Shown here: positions 1 through 7,011 of the stretch, piece after piece | Numbering within the stretch: position 1 is the stretch's first letter | How the letters are laid out: every line of letters starts with the position of its first letter | From: a bacterium | GTDB taxonomy: Bacteria > Ratteibacteria > UBA8468 | DNA length: 40,849 nucleotides | Direction of reading: 5' to 3' | Assembly (NCBI GenBank): GCA_030672255.1 | Contig: DAOVGU010000202.1 | Span: forward strand, 1-40,849 | Made by a program: the position numbers and the translations under genes | Notes under the pieces: generated by a model | Seen by the model: the letters and a program-made list of their open reading frames with translations, nothing else | What the model was told of the DNA's origin: nothing | Database searches by the model: none

Positions 1-150
1 GTCAAAGAACTAACAGACGCTATTAAACAATACATTGAAGCCAATAATAAAAATCCAAGATCATTTGTCTGGATAAAGACAGCAAATGAAATTCTTGCAA
101 AGTCACAAAAGTGTAAAGATGTTTCAGTTACAGGACACTAGGTGCCTACA
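1..150 (+). mobile_element. IS630-family insertion sequence, right end (transposase C-terminus, partial at window edge)
   Basis: Frame +1 is open from nt 1 to TAG at 139-141: VKELTDAIKQYIEANNKNPRSFVWIKTANEILAKSQKCKDVSVTGH. The NPxxFxW.KTA.EIL tail is the typical C-terminus of IS630-type transposases. The element end must lie within about 10 nt of the stop, because methyltransferase-like coding sequence on the other strand resumes at about 150. Confidence 0.7.
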
Positions 151-744
151 CTCTATCAATGTGGTTCCACTTCCAACAAAGGTATCAACTACCCATTCAC
201 CTTTTTTAGTATACCTCATCATCAATTGATGGGGTATTTGAGGAATAAAATTTCCCCAATATCCGGCGCAATGTGCACCAGAGCTATCCCGCTTATCTAA
301 TATCCATAGACTATCCGTAAGTATATCTGTATATTCTTTCCATCTATTTAAATTTATATCGTTGACTTTACTCGTCTTAATTTCAGTAACTCCTTTTTTG
401 AGACGCTCTAAATAATATCCAGCCCTCTCGATTGTCTGCGCCTCTCGTATTTGTTTCAATTCTTCAAGTAGTGGTCCCTTTTTTAAAACAACCGTATCTC
501 CATTCGTGTCAATGTTCCGCAACCCCATATTGTCGTTTTTGGGATAATTTACTACAGTAGAAATGGAATATACTTTTTTCTTTAATGAAGTTATCTCTTT
601 ATCCTTCAGTGCCCCTTCTACTTCTTCTATAAATTTGACCTTATTTATGATAATGTCTTTTTTCCAATCATAAGACTCTTTTTGTAAGTCAACGGACAAA
701 TCTAATACTTGATTATTAGTTTTCACTTCCTTTTCCTCCCTCAT
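124..744 (-). pseudogene. N6/N4 DNA methyltransferase-like gene, 3' end truncated by the IS630 insertion
   Basis: The C-terminal part reads TDSLWILDKRD..HCAGYWGNFIPQIPHQLMMRYTKKGEWVVDTFVGSGTTLIEC, which matches motif X plus SAM motif I (FxGSGTT). The last 7 codons (RHLVSCN) are read antisense through the transposase stop. No (D/N/S)PP(Y/F) catalytic motif is present in the retained 206 aa. Confidence 0.6.
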
Positions 745-768: not shown

Positions 769-799
769 AATGTCGCAAAAGTAGTAGTTTTGCGACATT
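769..799 (-). terminator. perfect 12-bp stem / 7-nt loop hairpin directly after the 4-TM gene stop
   Basis: aatgtcgcaaaa-gtagtag-ttttgcgacatt. There is no clear U-tract on the minus strand, so terminator function is uncertain. Confidence 0.35.
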
Positions 800-1389
800 T
801 ACTTCTTAAAGTGTACCAATAACAAATAGAACAAAGTCGAGAGCACGATGAATAATGCAATAGTAACATTGACACTGATAAGTAATGAGATACTTCCAGC
901 CTGACAGATCTCTCCAACGATTTTAACGATAACCAGCCCTACCAAGAATGTGGGGAAGACAATTGTGTAAAGAATCCACGCCCAACTTGAAAACAAAGGA
1001 TAGTCATTTAGATATGACTTGCCTTCCCGTGTAAATACCTTATTCGCATACTCGGCACTTAATTGTTCTTCAATCTGGTGAATGTATTTGTATTGCCTCT
1101 CGATATGTACTACTGTCTGGAAGTATCGAATAACGAGACTCAGTAACCCAAACCAGAGAATGCTCCCAATGAATGTTATGTTTATTGGAGACTTCAACTC
1201 AAGCTTCTTGGTGATAAACTGCGAAACGGCTTCACCGAATTCTGACGGTGAATGAACCTGGAAGAGCATAAGTGTTACTACGATCAAGATAAAGAGAAAC
1301 AACCTGTCCCGAAGTTTTATATATTCCTGAATGTAAAAAAAAGTATCTTTGTAGTGGTCATGCAGTAATTGCAGTTTAGCGTCTTCCAT
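799..1389 (-). CDS. small integral membrane protein, 4 predicted TM helices (candidate effector partner of the TIR-like protein)
   Basis: Hydrophobic stretches: LFLFILIVVTLMLFQV, ITFIGSILWFGLLSLVIRYF, WAWILYTIVFPTFLVGLVIVKIV and ISLLISVNVTIALFIVLSTLFYLLLV. GGGGAG lies upstream of the ATG, and the gene starts 20 nt downstream of the TIR-like gene. I recognise no known soluble domain. Confidence 0.7.
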   Translation of the reverse strand: MEDAKLQLLHDHYKDTFFYIQEYIKLRDRLFLFILIVVTLMLFQVHSPSEFGEAVSQFITKKLELKSPINITFIGSILWFGLLSLVIRYFQTVVHIERQYKYIHQIEEQLSAEYANKVFTREGKSYLNDYPLFSSWAWILYTIVFPTFLVGLVIVKIVGEICQAGSISLLISVNVTIALFIVLSTLFYLLLVHFKK

Positions 1390-1409
1390 TGATAGAAAAG
1401 TACTCCCCG

Positions 1410-1838
1410 TTAATTAGCTTCATTGAGTGCTTTGATAATTGCATCTTCTGTAAAGCTCATAGCCCAAGAAGCACCCGCACCGATAATTTCGTCCGGCGAT
1501 TCATAACTTTTGTCGATCTTGACTGCGGCAATCTTATTTGAGTTTTGTTTGCTTTGATAAATCTCAAAATTGAGCCAATTCTTAAAGCCAATCAGCTTAG
1601 AATGTTTGTGCGTCTTGTTTGCTTCCTTCCCCACTATTACAAGCGTGTGTGTTGCAGAATTTATCTTAGCTGTTATGGCCGCCTTGATCCGACCGATATT
1701 AGTAGTGTCAATTTCATCCGGGGTTTTGTCGCTAAAAACGAAATCAAAATCTGGATTTGCATCCCAAGCCTCAAGCAGATACTTATAGCGCTTATCATTA
1801 TCATAATCAAAACTCACAAAAACTTTTTTCTTTGCCAT
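1410..1838 (-). CDS. TIR-like domain protein (DUF1863 / ThsB-type)
   Basis: KKVFVSFDYDNDKRYKYLL...HTLVIVGKEANKTHKHSKLIGFKNWLNFEIYQS...KIAAVKID follows the flavodoxin-like pattern of ThsB/MTH538 TIR-like proteins. That pattern is beta1 VFVSF, then hydrophobic beta LVIVG, then W..xEI with a candidate catalytic Glu. An AGGGAGG RBS lies 6 nt upstream of the ATG. Confidence 0.7.
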   Translation of the reverse strand: MAKKKVFVSFDYDNDKRYKYLLEAWDANPDFDFVFSDKTPDEIDTTNIGRIKAAITAKINSATHTLVIVGKEANKTHKHSKLIGFKNWLNFEIYQSKQNSNKIAAVKIDKSYESPDEIIGAGASWAMSFTEDAIIKALNEAN

Positions 1839-1916
1839 GACTGCCTCCCTTTATTTTAAATTACATCTACCCATTTTATCTTTTCTTTTTCAACCTTTCC
1901 GTCCGCTGGTTGGGTA

Positions 1917-2198
1917 TTATTTCCCTTTTTCGTTATACTTCGGCTCAGATCGAGCAATAATTCGCGCCTCTGCCTTCTCTGCTTCCTTAATGCTCGACAT
2001 CTGTTTAATCTGAACCTTTGAACCTGAGATTTTACCATCTTCCAAGTGTTCTTCAATTCGCTCTTGAACACGCCCTTTCTTGGCTACGCCAACATAATTT
2101 GTTTTCCCACTGTCAGTCTGAATTTTGTAGACTACCGGCTTGTTATTCGGCAATTTTGACGCGCCACTTTGGTTGAATGGTACCGTTTTTCTTGCCAT
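1917..2198 (-). CDS. minimal GIY-YIG domain nuclease-family protein (93 aa from the RBS-supported ATG)
   Basis: VVYKI (GIY) ... NYVGV (YIG) ... RVQERIEEH (Arg) ... EAEKAEARII (Glu) ... PKYN (Asn). An AAGGAGGGAAG RBS precedes the internal ATG (MARKTVPF), so the ORF-track start at 2225 is probably too long. Confidence 0.7.
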   Translation of the reverse strand: MARKTVPFNQSGASKLPNNKPVVYKIQTDSGKTNYVGVAKKGRVQERIEEHLEDGKISGSKVQIKQMSSIKEAEKAEARIIARSEPKYNEKGK

Positions 2199-2316
2199 GG
2201 ATCTTCCCTCCTTTTTTTGCTCCACACTCTTGTTGGAGCTATTTTTAGTCTTTCATTAATTGTTATTGTTCCTCATCGCTCGTCACTTTAAGATCTTTTT
2301 GTCTCTACAAATTAAA

Positions 2317-2545
2317 CTATCTTTCCGCTAACATCTCCGCTGTTTCTTCTGAATCTTCCGGGAACACATCAACATAATATCTCAGTGTCGTTGTTATCTG
2401 AATTCCCTAAATATCGTTGAACCAATTTAGCATTTTTAAACTTCTTTAGAAGTCTTGTCCCGACCGTATGTCTTAAAGCATACGGCGTGAGCGATTCTCC
2501 CTTTTTAACACCTCGTCTTGCCTCATTATTCTGAATTTTAGCATT
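2317..2545 (-). pseudogene. tyrosine recombinase/integrase remnant (5'-truncated and frameshifted)
   Basis: ARRGVKKGESLTPYALRHTVGTRLLKKFKNAKLVQRYLGNSD matches the integrase box II region. After a 1-nt frameshift near 2385 the reading continues as TLRYYVDVFPEDSEETAEMLAER*, carrying the catalytic-Tyr motif. Nothing resembling the N-terminal two-thirds of an integrase is present. Confidence 0.65.
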
Positions 2546-2995
2546 ATAGGGGGGCTCTGTCAAGCATTTGTAAAGTGGAATGATCAAATTCTTTTAAAAT
2601 TCTGACATAAGAGATATAAGAAAAAAAGATTTCTCCGAAAAGAAGATTATAGTAAGATTAACGGGTTCTTTTCTCTATTTCTTTGAGGGTTTGTTTGAGG
2701 AGTTTTTGGGTCTTGCCGTATTTAGCCCAGTCACCCTTCTTTAAGGATTCCACACCCGCCTGATAGTAGTTCAATGCCTGCCTGACCAATGCTGAAACCT
2801 GCTTGCCGGTAGGCAGGGTTGGCTCTTCTCTTTTGGGAGTTTCTGCTATCCTGAATGTCCCGGCCAGAAGAGAGGATAGGGTAGCATCCAGGCTTTCGCC
2901 TATTACAACCTCATTCGCCTGGCCAAGGATGATGCGCTTGAATTCGGGAAGTTCTCCCTGCTCGGCCTTGAGGTAAAGAGGCTCTGCGTAAAGAA
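2500..2995 (-). repeat. copy B of a ~0.5-0.6 kb segment (UPF0182 3' end + downstream spacer + start of integrase remnant)
   Basis: Aligns with 3912-4535. It shares identical runs such as agaggatagggtagcatccaggctttcgcc and ccaaggatgatgcgcttgaattcgggaagttctccctgctcggcctt, with diverged sequence between them. Confidence 0.85.
2658..2995 (-). pseudogene. orphan duplicated 3' fragment of the UPF0182 gene (last ~110 codons)
   Basis: YAEPLYLKAEQGELPEFKRIILGQ...VSALVRQALNYYQAGVESLKKGDWAKYG.TQKLL.QTL..IEKRT is near-identical to the C-terminus of the 933-aa protein. Sequence 5' of ~2995 is unrelated, so the listed 156-aa ORF is not a real gene. Confidence 0.85.
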
Positions 2996-3093
2996 AAATT
3001 GGGTATAAGTGTAGTAGGGGGTAGTAGGGGTGAGAATTTTCAATGGGAATCTGCGGTTGCCCACTGTTTGCGCAGTGGGCCGGTCGCACCAAA

Positions 3094-3136
3094 TAAAAAA
3101 AGCCGACACTACAGGATTTCTCCTGCAATGTCGGCT
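3094..3136 (-). terminator. rho-independent terminator downstream of the 174-aa gene
   Basis: The minus strand reads agccgacattgcaggagaaatcctgtagtgtcggc followed by ttttttttatttgg (hairpin plus T-run). Confidence 0.7.
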
Positions 3137-3242
3137 ACGAGTTTTTCGATTACCGACTTACTCCTTCTCAACAGAGGGAAATAAATCTATTTTTCAGTTA
3201 TCTATTGTGATTATGCCTCAAATTTAACGATTTGTCAATTGA

Positions 3243-3767
3243 TTATTTAGTAGAAGGCACTATTTTTTTCTGTATTTCATCAAGACTTTTAATAAACTTT
3301 TGTATGGTATCGCGCTCAAAGGAAATAATCCGCAAAATTTCTTGTTTATTAATATTGCCGTCATTGTAATCTTTTATTGATTTATTTATAAAAAGTTCCG
3401 TGCCTTGATTCATGTGTTCTAATATTGTAGCAATAAGATTAAGATCCTCTGTACTCAATTTTTCATAGAGAAACCCTTGATTAAAATAACTAAGAGTGAA
3501 TAAACGTTGGTAATTCACATATTTAGGGTAATAAAAAACTTTATCCTCAACGCCTATTTTTTCTATGGTTTTGGTTAAATCTTCGAGGGTTTTTTCTAAA
3601 TATTTTTTATTGAAATTAAATTCACATCTAAGATTTTTCTCAAGTAACTTCTTTGCTGCATCTTTAGTCCATTTATTTGTCAGATGAAAAAGCAGGATAG
3701 AAAAAATAAAGGCTAAGAATACTCCAATAAATGTAGGGAATGCTAATTGCCAGAATGTCATACTCAA
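3243..3767 (-). CDS. hypothetical N-terminally membrane-anchored protein (AT-rich cargo gene)
   Basis: One N-terminal TM (FWQLAFPTFIGVFLAFIFSILLFHL) is followed by a Lys/Glu-rich helical region. It has an AAGGAG RBS and its own terminator. It lies between the two UPF0182 3'-end copies. I recognise no family. Confidence 0.6.
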   Translation of the reverse strand: MSMTFWQLAFPTFIGVFLAFIFSILLFHLTNKWTKDAAKKLLEKNLRCEFNFNKKYLEKTLEDLTKTIEKIGVEDKVFYYPKYVNYQRLFTLSYFNQGFLYEKLSTEDLNLIATILEHMNQGTELFINKSIKDYNDGNINKQEILRIISFERDTIQKFIKSLDEIQKKIVPSTK

Positions 3768-3911
3768 TCTCCTTTTTGGCTACTCCTTCTCCACACTGAT
3801 ATTTTATCCTCTTTCCCTGCAGAAATCAAGAGCCACTTCTCAATTACATTACCTTTCTCATCCCTAACCGACCAGATGATAGGAACTTCGTTTTTCTGGC
3901 CAGCAGCAGCA

Positions 3912-4535
3912 TCTTTTTGACACCTCATCTTGCCTCATTATTCTGAATTGTGTCGATATTCTCCTTGGAAGTTGAGATGATATCCAGCATTGCTTTTCTT
4001 CGCTTGCGACACAATGGTGAGTAATTAAGCAAGAATAACAAGGATGTATCGCAATTTTAGTATTATAGGGGGGCTCTGTCAAGTATTTGTATTGTATCTA
4101 AAATTTCGACATAAGAAAAAAAGGGTTCTCCGAAAAGAAGGTTATGGGAGGATTAATGTGTTCTTTTCTCTATTGCTTGGAGGGTTTGTTGGAGGAGTTT
4201 TTGGGTCTCGCCATACTTAGCCCAGTCACCCTTTTTTAAGGATTCCACACCAGCCTGGTAGTAGTTTAGAGCCTGCCTGACTAAAGCGGATACAGATTCT
4301 CCCCCCTCCTCAATCCTCCCCCGCAAGTGGGGAGGAGAAGAAACATCCTCAATCTCCCCCCTCGAGGGAGGAGGTAGGTGGGGGTCTATCTTAAATGTCC
4401 CTGTTAGGAGAGAGGATAGGGTAGCATCCAGGCTTTCGCCCATGACAACTCTATTCCCCTGACCAAGGATGATGCGCTTGAATTCGGGAAGTTCTCCCTG
4501 CTCGGCCTTCAGATAAAGTGGCTCTGCGTAAAGAA
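3912..4535 (-). repeat. copy A of the duplicated segment (functional 3' end of the UPF0182 gene + spacer + short integrase-remnant piece)
   Basis: See copy B. Copy A also carries a 103-nt insertion (3950-4052, bounded by AATT/AATT) and the GC-rich palindromic element at 4297-4386. Confidence 0.85.
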
Positions 4536-6924
4536 TCGATTGCTCGATGGGGATGACAAGCAAATTACCGCGAATGACGGAGGAGCCTCTCTGACCCCAG
4601 AGGGTTAGCTGCTCAGAGATTGTTGGGTTCTGGTCGATACGCGCCTCAATCTGCATCGGACCATAGACCAGTTTGTCCTTGGGAAATTTGTAGAGCAGAA
4701 GGTTTCCGTAATTTTCTCCGTCACAGGCTGCGGCAAGCCAGGCAATCATATTGTTCTTTCCTGTTGGGGTAAATGGCAAAAGAAGAAAAAATTCCTCTTT
4801 TTCTTCTATTTTCAGAATCATATAATAGGGCTCCATTTGCTGTTCGGATGATGTATAAATTTCCCGGGGAATATCCCAGTAGTCCTCCTTGTTATAGAAT
4901 ACCTCAGGATTGCGCATATGGTATGTTCGATATATTTGCGCCTGAATTTTAAACAGTGTCTCCGGATAACGAATGTGTTTTTTTAAGTCTAATGGCATTT
5001 GCGCAAATGGTTTGAACAACGTCGGAAAAATCTTCTGGTAAACGTTGATTAAGGGATCTTCATTGTCCAGGAGATAAAAAGAAACATCTCCATGGTAAGC
5101 ATCAATAATAATCTTAACCGAATTGCGGATGTAGTTAAAACTTTTCTGGTAAGGAGTGGCGTAGGGATACATATTGCTTACCGTGTAAGCATCGAGAATC
5201 CAGAATAATTTTCCTTCCGACGAGATTACAAGATAAGGGTCCTGGTCGTAATGCAGGAAGGGAGCAATTTTTTGGCAACGCTCGCGGATATTACGATAGA
5301 GCATAATTCTGCTTTCAGGTGTAATATTCCGCGTCAAAAGCAGTTTAAAGTCAAGGTATTTCAGGGAAAGGAGAAGCTTTCTGAAAGTGGAGGAGATCGG
5401 TGTTCCTCCTTTACCTTCATAAAAGGTATAGATATTCTTATCCCCTTTGGGATAATCAAATTCCTTAGTCTTTGTCTTTACGATGCAGTAGTTGTCGGTT
5501 AACTCCCCGTAGTAGATTTCCGGTCTTTTTACCTTAAGATTAGATTCAGATACGGGAGGGATATCTTTAATCAGGAGGCTGGGAAATCCTTCTCTGGTAA
5601 CCTCCCCTACGGGAGAAAGAACAACTCCATAGCCATGCGTATACTTCATCCGCTCATTGATCCAGGTCCTGGCTTTTTGCGGAATCTTAGATTGATTCAG
5701 TTCTCTTGCCGAAAGAAATACCTGTCGGTACTCTCCATTAATTTCGTAGCGGTCGATATCTACATTGGGAAAATCATAGTAAAGACGCAATCCCTGAAGC
5801 TGGCGATATGTTGCCTTCAGAGGTCTTGGGTCCCAGAGCCTGATATTCTTGATGATTGCTTTGTTCCTTTTGACCTCTTCGATTGTAAGGCTTTCTTTCA
5901 AGGGAAATTTTCTCTCCTTAATTTTAGTTAACCCATAGGCGAGGGTTGTATATTTAATGTTATGCTCAATATAAGGGCTCTCCTTTAAAATCTCATTTGG
6001 CTCCACAACCATCTTTTGCAGGATTGTCGGATAGATGCTCTGAAGGATGAGGGAGACACCAATCAAGGCTCCGATGCCGTATAGGGCGGGCTTGATTGTG
6101 CGCTGCCAAAGAAATGTAAAGATTGAAACTGCGCAGAGGATAGAAAGCACGATAAGTGCCTTTAAACCAATTAATCGCGCATGAATATCGGCATAACCGG
6201 CACCAAAGACTACTCCCTGCGAGGAGAAAAGAAGCCCATAGATATTGAGCCGATATTGCCAGGCTTTCAGCAAAATAAAAACAGCGATTAAAGCGAGGAT
6301 ATGATTTTTTACATATTGCTCAACTCTCAAGCGATTAAAATCTATCCTGATGGCTCCCTTAAGCCCATAAAGAGCAAGAGTTAAAAGAGTAATAAAGAAG
6401 ATAGAACCGGAAAGCCAGTTCTGGATAAAGGAAAAGAAGGGAAGGGAGAAGAGATAAAAACCAATATCTTTCTGAAAAATGGGATCAGCAATTCCCACGT
6501 TCACCCGGTTGAAATAGGCAAGGACAATTTCCCAGCGCTTCATTTGAGAAATTCCCACAAGGAAAGCAATAAATAAGGAGCAGAGGAGTAGGAAACGAGG
6601 TTCCGTCAGAACTTTAAGTAGTTTTCCCAGCTGATACAGTTCGGGTGGAATCTGGAATCTCTCAGAGAAATCTTGCTCAGAACTTGGAGAAAGGCGGGCT
6701 GCTAAAAGAAGGTTAAGATAGAGAAGAAAAAAGAAAAGAAGAGAAAAGAGTAAAGCAATTTCAATTCTGGTGAAGAAAATCTTTGTAAATACAGGCAGGT
6801 AATTCAGAGTCTTAAACCAGATAAAATTTACATAAAAGTTTATTAGGGCTCTGTTTGTCACCAACCCTAACAATAGCAATCCTGCCAACACCCAACCAAC
6901 CTTTCTTTTTAGCATTGATTGCAT
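4153..6924 (-). CDS. UPF0182-family large membrane protein
   Basis: About 920 aa. The N-terminal third has multiple TM helices, followed by a large soluble domain and a conserved YAEPLYLKAE...LPE.KRII block near the C-terminus. The track start at 6954 is a TTG inside an intergenic hairpin; the ATGs at 6924 and 6915 (MQSMLKRK) are more likely. Confidence 0.8.
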   Translation of the reverse strand: MQSMLKRKVGWVLAGLLLLGLVTNRALINFYVNFIWFKTLNYLPVFTKIFFTRIEIALLFSLLFFFLLYLNLLLAARLSPSSEQDFSERFQIPPELYQLGKLLKVLTEPRFLLLCSLFIAFLVGISQMKRWEIVLAYFNRVNVGIADPIFQKDIGFYLFSLPFFSFIQNWLSGSIFFITLLTLALYGLKGAIRIDFNRLRVEQYVKNHILALIAVFILLKAWQYRLNIYGLLFSSQGVVFGAGYADIHARLIGLKALIVLSILCAVSIFTFLWQRTIKPALYGIGALIGVSLILQSIYPTILQKMVVEPNEILKESPYIEHNIKYTTLAYGLTKIKERKFPLKESLTIEEVKRNKAIIKNIRLWDPRPLKATYRQLQGLRLYYDFPNVDIDRYEINGEYRQVFLSARELNQSKIPQKARTWINERMKYTHGYGVVLSPVGEVTREGFPSLLIKDIPPVSESNLKVKRPEIYYGELTDNYCIVKTKTKEFDYPKGDKNIYTFYEGKGGTPISSTFRKLLLSLKYLDFKLLLTRNITPESRIMLYRNIRERCQKIAPFLHYDQDPYLVISSEGKLFWILDAYTVSNMYPYATPYQKSFNYIRNSVKIIIDAYHGDVSFYLLDNEDPLINVYQKIFPTLFKPFAQMPLDLKKHIRYPETLFKIQAQIYRTYHMRNPEVFYNKEDYWDIPREIYTSSEQQMEPYYMILKIEEKEEFFLLLPFTPTGKNNMIAWLAAACDGENYGNLLLYKFPKDKLVYGPMQIEARIDQNPTISEQLTLWGQRGSSVIRGNLLVIPIEQSILYAEPLYLKAEQGELPEFKRIILGQGNRVVMGESLDATLSSLLTGTFKIDPHLPPPSRGEIEDVSSPPHLRGRIEEGGESVSALVRQALNYYQAGVESLKKGDWAKYGETQKLLQQTLQAIEKRTH
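4297..4386 (-). repeat. GC-rich palindromic element, copy 1 (in frame inside the UPF0182 gene)
   Basis: Sense strand: cccccacctacctcctccctcgaggggggag...cctccccacttgcgggggagg. It encodes DPHLPPPSRGEIEDVSSPPHLRGRIEEGGES and replaces 16 unrelated residues present in pseudogene copy B. Confidence 0.8.
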
Positions 6925-6944
6925 AGGAATTTCAAAGCAAATCA

Positions 6945-7011
6945 GGCAAAGCAAGCTTTGCCACTACATAGACAAAATAAATATGTAGTTGCCGTCCCTG
7001 CGGAAGCAGGG
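6945..7011. repeat. three consecutive intergenic hairpins
   Basis: ggcaaagc-aa-gctttgcc, then actacata-N11-tatgtagt, then ccctgc-ggaa-gcaggg. The ctacat-type hairpin recurs at 39036-39055. Confidence 0.7.

Follow-up and report, generated by a model that had tools for sequence, protein, structure and literature searches.

In Thoeris systems TIR enzymes turn nicotinamide adenine dinucleotide (NAD+) into immune messengers, a logic that they share with plants and animals, and each new class of Thoeris effector has so far revealed a new signal or a new mode of sensing. The question raised by the locus described here is whether a small TIR gene and its membrane-protein neighbour, found near one end of a bacterial contig, form such a system, and which part each of the two proteins would then play in it. 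The locus lies in a stretch of 40,849 nucleotides (nt), hereafter called the window, from a bacterium of the GTDB lineage Bacteria; Ratteibacteria; UBA8468 (GenBank assembly GCA_030672255.1, contig DAOVGU010000202.1, positions 1 to 40,849 of the forward strand). An initial annotation had singled out three minus-strand genes at 799-2198 as a Thoeris-like defence operon composed of a ThsB-type TIR protein, a four-transmembrane (4-TM) partner regarded as a new effector, and a GIY-YIG nuclease regarded as a possible second one. The coordinates and spacing of these genes, with intergenic gaps of 78 nt (GIY-YIG to TIR) and 20 nt (TIR to 4-TM), are exactly as it described them:

799-1389, minus strand: gene of the 4-TM partner protein, 196 amino acids (open reading frame call)
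1410-1838, minus strand: gene of the ThsB-type TIR protein, 142 amino acids (open reading frame call)
1917-2198, minus strand: gene of a minimal GIY-YIG-like protein, 93 amino acids from an ATG (102 amino acids from a GTG at 2225)

With a probability of about 0.6, the TIR and 4-TM genes form an anti-phage module of two genes that signals in the manner of Thoeris systems and rides on a small integrase-borne islet. This reading is carried by the identity of the TIR and its glutamate, the topology of the 4-TM protein, a linkage of the two genes that spans phyla, the swapping and multiplication of TIR partners, and the genomic contexts of the pair. It preserves the essence of the initial proposal, a Thoeris-like module whose membrane effector is non-canonical; of that proposal, the novelty of the effector, its suggested likeness to SLATT proteins and the role given to the GIY-YIG protein have to be abandoned.

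The 142-residue protein is a TIR of the ThsB type in which a catalytic-type glutamate is conserved, and the profile and structure searches thus uphold what the initial annotation had said of it. It matches the Pfam model PF08937 (ThsB_TIR) with 40.2 bits against a cut-off of 21.2 as well as the PADLOC model ThsB1 (E 1.7e-11), and an AlphaFold2 (AF2) model built with 42 homologues (predicted local distance difference test score, pLDDT, 86) has as its best Foldseek matches in the PDB the solved ThsB structures EcThsB2 (8v6t, template-modelling score 0.74), BcThsB (9b7d) and EcThsB (8wcf). Furthermore, Glu92, which is part of the motif NWLNFEIY, is invariant in all 48 of 48 TIRs from 4-TM-linked loci and aligns with the glutamate of RRWVRYEI in Bacillus cereus ThsB, which we take to be the catalytic residue of that enzyme; from the alignment, Glu92 is a candidate catalytic residue. 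The protein also matches phrog_6988 (E 1.5e-34). The PADLOC candidate system PDC-M50 was considered and rejected, since the TIR matches PDC-M50B, yet the 4-TM protein matches neither PDC-M50A nor any other model.

The 196-residue partner is a 4-TM protein without a recognisable domain. Its hydropathy profile has four hydrophobic segments, and the AF2 model (85 sequences) is all-helical with helices at residues 3-46, 49-62, 71-112, 131-164 and 169-194 (pLDDT 85.7; predicted template-modelling score, pTM, 0.81). The count of lysine and arginine is about 13 on the side of the N-terminus, loop 2 and the C-terminus and about 3 on the opposite side, which by the positive-inside rule argues for an N-in/C-in topology. 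Under this topology all conserved polar motifs are cytoplasmic, namely DHYKDTF and RDRLF in the N-terminal helix and RYFQT, IERQYxYIHxxE and FTREGKSYLxxYP in loop 2, the most conserved segment of the protein, and the invariant cytoplasmic residues include H12, R27, R121 and E122. Together the N-terminal helix and the loop between TM2 and TM3 contribute approximately 70 conserved cytoplasmic residues, among which Arg, Lys, His and Tyr abound. No soluble segment is longer than a loop of about 46 residues, the chain ends 5 residues past TM4, and no Macro or SLOG domain was found with Pfam in the window protein or in 31 diverse members of its family, so that the description of the partner as four TM helices lacking these sensors is borne out.

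The family itself is both large and uniform. An indexed search returned 273 homologues, and an exhaustive profile search of 1.84 billion representatives gave 839 clusters at 50% identity, distributed over bacteria, archaea, lineages of the candidate phyla radiation (CPR) and phages and having no known domain or structural relative. Nearly all members are stand-alone proteins of about 200 residues, the few that are longer owe this to low-complexity tails, and no domain fusion hinting at function was found among the 839 clusters. The window protein has no family match in Pfam, NCBIfam, PADLOC or PHROGs, the 31 diverse members compared with Pfam and PADLOC gave only scattered noise and nothing consistent, and none of these members matches PF10028 (DUF2270) or PF18159 (S_4TM) at E<=1. 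Foldseek searches of the model against the PDB and BFVD likewise returned only generic helical bundles (E>0.09).

The notion that the partner might be SLATT-like is not supported. A profile was prepared from a DUF4231/SLATT_1 protein that is paired with a related TIR on a Staphylococcus plasmid, 44 homologues being aligned, and when the 4-TM family was compared with this 44-sequence alignment by hhalign, the probability of homology was 0.46% (E 0.13). None of the 31 members matches any SLATT Pfam model at E<=1, and the plasmid DUF4231 protein, serving as a positive control for these models, matches PF14015 and PF18181. In addition, the protein has four TM helices as against two in SLATT proteins. 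A single-sequence comparison, which gave 40% over 29 columns, was misleading and is superseded by the profile-profile result.

If the two proteins act together, their genes should be expected to travel together, and a linkage scan was carried out with one genome per species. It returned 64 loci (referred to below by L numbers), in which the surroundings of the 4-TM gene are as follows:

49 of 64 loci: ThsB-family TIR gene directly upstream of the 4-TM gene, median gap 2 nt
1 locus (L036): partial TIR gene cut by the contig edge
1 locus (L037): 4-TM gene itself at the contig edge
2 loci (L007, L035): gene of a TIR_2 protein directly downstream of the 4-TM gene
2 loci (L015, L017): gene of a CAP12/Pycsar-type TIR protein directly downstream of the 4-TM gene
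9 loci: no TIR gene within 5 kb of the 4-TM homologue

A TIR gene thus touches the 4-TM gene in 53 of the 62 genome loci that are not cut at a contig edge, and all seven viral (IMG/VR) loci carry the ThsB-4TM pair, as do all twelve loci from six contig look-ups. The loci come from Omnitrophota, Bacillus, Saccharibacteria, Parcubacteria, Chloroflexota, Bacteroidota, cyanobacteria, Poribacteria and a Methanotrichaceae archaeon, the closest one (87% identity) belonging to a metagenome-assembled genome of Omnitrophota. Overlaps of 1-29 nt between the ThsB and 4-TM genes are common, spacings typical of translational coupling, and pairwise divergences of the TIR and the 4-TM protein are correlated (Mantel r 0.58, reached in 0 of 999 permutations), mean pairwise identity being 0.51 for the TIR and 0.34 for the 4-TM protein. 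We can conclude that the conserved unit consists of two genes, TIR and 4-TM, which are neighbours across many phyla, rather than of the three genes of the operon as it was initially drawn; the linkage that had been predicted for the 4-TM gene is at the same time amply confirmed.

The identity of the TIR partner is less constant than its presence. At L041 the order is ThsB-4TM-TIR_2, with TIR genes on both sides of the 4-TM gene, additional TIR genes are found near the pair at L044 and L049, and PADLOC ThsB1 matches the TIR_2 proteins encoded beside the 4-TM gene at L035 and L041. The downstream partner at the two Bacillaceae loci L015 and L017 (4992-6779) is a protein of 335-344 residues with an N-terminal TIR domain (PF10137; PADLOC 'Effector TIR', E 2.5e-42), followed by a C-terminal region of about 170 residues for which no match was found; nor did the C-terminal regions of the other alternative TIR partners give an informative match past the TIR domain.

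The nine loci without a TIR gene include some where the 4-TM homologue is found in other company or is degraded. At L040 (Mucilaginibacter sp., 1000-5693) a gene for a 1324-residue nSTAND1 NTPase ends 26 nt upstream of the 4-TM gene and no TIR gene is nearby, and in this single case the 4-TM protein may be the separate effector of a STAND sensor. In Poribacteria the 4-TM homologues of five loci (L054, L056, L058, L060 and L062) are divergent, several being truncated or split, and no TIR gene lies within 5 kb of them; the copies at L054 and L056 lie near apparent tetratricopeptide repeat (TPR) proteins, judged from sequence and not by profile. These Poribacteria homologues may be decaying or repurposed copies.

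The surroundings of the pair at other loci, judged by inspection, agree with the defence-islet type of setting that had been suggested for the window. In Thermincola potens the pair adjoins cas1/cas2 and Mu-like transposase genes, at one locus it occupies the integrase-proximal slot of a prophage, at another it lies among Fic, Zeta-toxin and NOV_C genes, at another it adjoins RES-Xre and AbiEii genes, in one context HicAB genes are its neighbours, and at one locus it directly follows a short integrase gene. The initial annotation had let its proposal depend on a TIR match of the 142-residue protein and on conserved linkage of its partner to TIR genes, and with the adjacency conserved in defence and mobile contexts both were found. 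The pair hence has in common with Thoeris systems a ThsB-type TIR with the glutamate, a conserved adjacent non-TIR gene and a location among defence or mobile genes.

The third gene of the cassette does not share this history. Its 93-residue product scores 19.8 bits with PF01541 (E 1e-3), which is below the gathering score of 22.6, and has a match to a PHROG endonuclease (E 2e-3), and the residues of the GIY-YIG motif can be read by eye (VVY...YVG, R42/R46, E72/E75, N89). Homologues were found only in the four closest relatives (L001, L081, L082 and L084), always directly upstream of the TIR gene, the gene being absent from all other loci of the set, and no phage homologue was found by tblastn. 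At L082 a full-length integrase gene precedes it and the TIR gene follows it, and the downstream context differs. Because of this restricted distribution we regard it as a lineage-specific passenger of the islet and not as a conserved component; the proposal that it encodes a second effector is without support, and it was accordingly rejected as part of the system.

The combination of genes described here is not without precedent. Yirmiya et al. (bioRxiv, 3 Dec 2025, doi 10.64898/2025.12.03.692087) scanned approximately 600 million proteins and described 29 putative Thoeris types, of which types V-XI were validated, and their Table S1 lists under the label '4TM' 33 TIR genes, all of TIR cluster 2727267812. 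The window TIR is 38-70% identical to the 17 '4TM'-class TIR domains that were compared, and these score 137-227 bits on the hidden Markov model built here and are up to 80% identical to TIRs of the 4-TM loci. The SLATT-linked TIRs of the same cluster, at about 40% identity to the window TIR and 80-106 bits, score clearly below them. By TIR sequence the window module is a member of this predicted 'TIR + 4TM' class, and since the listed TIRs are so close to those encoded beside the 4-TM family, the same 4-TM family is presumably meant. The configuration was thus already catalogued as a prediction with TIRs of the same family, and the effector cannot be called new; no text mentioning both Thoeris and '4TM' in its main part was found in the literature searched. 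The predicted class likewise combines the same TIR family with a 4-TM partner in a two-gene operon, and in some of its entries the partner gene is flanked on either side by TIR genes, as at L041; the window differs in its extra lineage-specific GIY-YIG gene and its integrase-islet setting. Thoeris operons have been described as a constant non-TIR gene accompanied by a variable TIR gene or by several of them (Sabonis et al.; Yirmiya et al.), and membrane effectors are also found in the validated types II, V, VII and X.

Among the validated systems type VII is nearest. It combines ThsB with the SLATT effector ThsH, its signal being canonical cyclic ADP-ribose (cADPR), its Bacillus ThsBs share the TIR cluster of the window protein, and they are the closest experimentally tested relatives of the latter (about 40% identity, E down to 7e-34). 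Its effector is likewise a small membrane protein without enzymatic domain, but it has 2 TM helices in about 145 residues, whereas the window partner has 4 in 196 and no SLATT similarity; the DUF4231/SLATT_1 and TIR plasmid system retrieved for comparison is related to this type. A type VII ThsB query retrieved a TIR-TIR-TPR-TIR cluster beside an IS5 transposase gene on plasmid pAR1 of Acinetobacter radioresistens (L080, 1857-4701), which resembles multi-TIR Thoeris arrangements with a TPR-containing partner. Type II (ThsA/ThsC with 2 TM helices and a Macro domain, signal His-ADPR) likewise pairs a ThsB-type TIR with a membrane effector, and its EcThsB2 (8v6t) is the best structural match of the window TIR, but the 4-TM partner has no Macro or other globular ligand-binding domain. 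Type V (ThsB with the 3-TM protein DUF2270/ThsF, signal 3'cADPR) also has a small multi-TM effector of uncharacterised fold; the 4-TM protein differs from it in having four TM helices instead of three and no PF10028 match, and the TIR cluster is a different one. The membrane effectors of CBASS and Pycsar (S-4TM/Cap13-like, PycTM) are small TM proteins too, being the terminal effectors in defence by nucleotide second messengers, but the 4-TM protein has no S_4TM or effector model match in Pfam or PADLOC and is partnered by a TIR instead of a CD-NTase or cyclase.

If the pair functions as a Thoeris-type module, infection would be sensed by the 142-residue TIR, which by way of Glu92 would convert NAD+ into a second messenger derived from ADP-ribose. 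The 4-TM effector would bind this signal through its approximately 70 conserved cytoplasmic residues, probably in pockets between the protomers of an oligomer, and binding would open or disrupt the membrane, thereby aborting the infection. The signal may, by analogy, be a cADPR isomer, since the nearest tested relative, the ThsB of the validated type VII system of Bacillus licheniformis, which belongs to the same TIR cluster, makes canonical cADPR (Yirmiya et al.). For the binding step the best available mechanistic analogy is ThsF, which has been proposed to bind its signal in positively charged pockets between the protomers of a ring (Yirmiya et al.). That a signal is made, what it is, that the 4-TM protein binds it and that the membrane is damaged are points that we infer; an effector role of the protein is made plausible by its confident model, its cytoplasmic conserved motifs and the lack of enzymatic domains and fusions.

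Several observations nonetheless weigh against this interpretation. The 4-TM protein has no recognisable nucleotide-binding domain or structural homologue, so that ligand gating is an analogy, nine of the 4-TM homologue loci have no TIR gene inside 5 kb, and the TIR is better conserved than the 4-TM protein even though the sensor is assumed to be the faster-evolving partner. Furthermore, the TIR of the L015 and L017 partner, by its match of E 2.5e-42, resembles the NADase effector TIRs of CBASS and Pycsar. The '4TM' class of Yirmiya et al. is only listed there, no member having been chosen for testing, named or described, and its equation with the 4-TM family runs through the identity of the TIRs and not through effector sequences. 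Neither of their 'SLOG and 4TM' candidates protected E. coli, the authors warn that the TIR may be a toxic, NAD+-depleting effector in unverified types, and no experiment on any system of a TIR and a bare 4TM protein was found in the literature.

The main rival reverses the roles: the 4-TM protein would either restrain the TIR or sense infection at the membrane (by way of DNA injection, envelope stress or a phage membrane protein), and the TIR, once set free or activated, would be an NAD+-depleting toxin that makes no diffusible signal. The faster evolution of the 4-TM protein, its lack of a recognisable ligand-binding domain, the partnership at L015 and L017 with a TIR of the CAP12/PycTIR type (known NADase effectors), and the reservation about TIR effectors, which the preprint names as a limitation for unverified types, would all be explained by such a reversal. 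We nevertheless find it unlikely, because the window TIR belongs to the ThsB family and shares its cluster with TIRs that have been shown to make signals, because its 142 residues leave no extra domain for obvious regulation by a membrane sensor, and because the best-conserved part of the 4-TM protein is cytoplasmic and not external. In addition, two TIR families flank a single 4-TM gene at L041 and in several Table S1 entries, and two different TIRs around one 4-TM protein fit several sensors feeding one effector better than they fit several effectors.

A second way of dispensing with a free messenger is direct contact of the TIR with the 4-TM protein on its cytoplasmic side, the pore of the latter being opened by infection-triggered oligomerisation of the TIR or by cleavage of NAD+ in place. 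Overlapping stop and start codons and the median gap of 2 nt do suggest stoichiometric co-production, the divergences of the two proteins are significantly correlated, and the cytoplasmic module of the 4-TM protein is small. Correlated divergence can however come from co-inheritance alone, and the partners of the 4-TM protein come from three unrelated TIR families, encoded on one side of its gene or the other, and at one locus the partner is a STAND NTPase; a shared small-molecule signal explains such diverse partners more easily than a conserved protein interface does, and direct gating thus appears rather improbable. Least probable of all, in our opinion, is that the pair has no specific anti-phage role and is an addiction module of the toxin-antitoxin kind or other cargo of mobile elements. 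That it travels with integrases, insertion sequence (IS) elements and toxin-antitoxin genes, and that no phenotype has been reported in the literature, would suit this explanation, which is however in poor agreement with the invariance of the catalytic-type glutamate, with the presence of the pair next to cas genes and in the moron positions of prophages, and with the fact that its TIR cluster passed the filter for defence-island enrichment (defence score >0.4) applied in the preprint (Yirmiya et al.).

Taking the Thoeris-type reading one step further, it is conceivable, although we would call this doubtful, that the 4-TM protein represents a new kind of ligand-gated membrane effector, reading a possibly undescribed TIR-made molecule by means of about 70 residues that form a helical module in the cytoplasm, a module unrelated to SLOG, Macro, SLATT, SAVED and DUF2270. 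It would then also be a portable 'plug-in' executioner for ThsB-type, TIR_2 and CAP12-type TIRs and, at L040, for a STAND NTPase, in use among bacteria, CPR, archaea and phages. If some 70 cytoplasmic residues on a four-helix scaffold do read a TIR signal, the protein would be a minimal signal-gated suicide pore, and a further TIR-derived molecule could emerge from its study. Since the class has already been catalogued, the window locus is confirmatory; what it adds is an example from the Omnitrophota lineage, the evidence of partner swapping and the clear negative with respect to SLATT.

The signals for expression of the cassette and its flanks in the window comprise the following features:

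1-138, plus strand: 3' end of an IS630-family transposase gene (tblastn against annotated IS630 transposases, E down to 2e-7)
124-744, minus strand: truncated type II DNA methyltransferase gene (PADLOC MTase_II, E 4.6e-54)
769-799, minus strand: hairpin with a 12-bp stem, directly past the stop codon of the 4-TM gene
2369-2587, minus strand: C-terminal remnant of a tyrosine recombinase (integrase) gene (PF00589, E 1.8e-5; XerD-type models)
2501-3128: older copy of an attachment region, consisting of the displaced 3' end of a UPF0182 gene and a spacer, with a second copy at about 3913-4640
2535-2563, minus strand: near-consensus sigma-70-like promoter (TTGACA-17-TAAAAT with TG) pointing toward the cassette

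The GIY-YIG and TIR genes are preceded by good Shine-Dalgarno sites (AGGAGGG and AGGGAGG, respectively), and the only candidate site of the 4-TM gene is a distant GGGGAG about 16 nt upstream. The hairpin at 769-799 is a possible transcript end for the cassette, and no T-run follows it on the coding strand. The promoter-like sequence is contained in a 39-nt element that occurs twice, at 2534-2572 and 4053-4091, one copy facing the GIY-TIR-4TM cassette and the other an AT-rich islet. The description of the cassette as lying in visibly AT-richer DNA is overstated, since its GC content of 39.6% is only mildly below the 42.5 +/- 3.1% found elsewhere on the contig in windows of equal size; the value for the islet as a whole (1-2657) is 37.4%.

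The flanks are those initially recognised, an IS-disrupted methyltransferase gene on one side and an integrase remnant on the other. The IS630 transposase fragment sits at the contig end and abuts the break in the methyltransferase gene, of whose product residues 1-202 of 388 are left; these share 97% identity with the corresponding residues of the intact methyltransferase at the closely related locus L081. There (2119-4444) the complete 388-residue protein is followed by a gene for a protein of 385 residues without Pfam match, possibly the restriction partner. Between the integrase remnant and the C-terminal portion of the full-length 210-residue integrase that precedes GIY-TIR-4TM at L082, identity is 56-85%.

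Beyond the remnant, an open reading frame at 2658-3128 on the minus strand mirrors the C-terminus of the 933-residue UPF0182 protein encoded at 4153-6954. It is part of a duplication of about 630 bp (direct repeats D1-D5, 87-95% identity) at the 3' end of the UPF0182 gene, which points to successive integrations, apparently two, at one attachment site. The region between the repeat copies (3129-3912) is a very AT-rich islet of 32% GC with an open reading frame at 3243-3767 on the minus strand for a 174-residue protein with an N-terminal TM helix, for which Pfam, NCBIfam, PADLOC and PHROGs gave no match and which, on comparison, proved unrelated to the 174-residue product of the gene downstream of the pair at L085. 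The rest of the contig consists of housekeeping genes. In several lineages a short tyrosine recombinase gene (187-210 residues) directly precedes TIR-4TM, with or without the GIY-YIG gene (L082, 2961-7658; L085, 6857-8591), the recombinase and the pair at L085 being found directly after a nuo operon, and this arrangement suggests a very small mobile unit composed of an integrase and its cargo.

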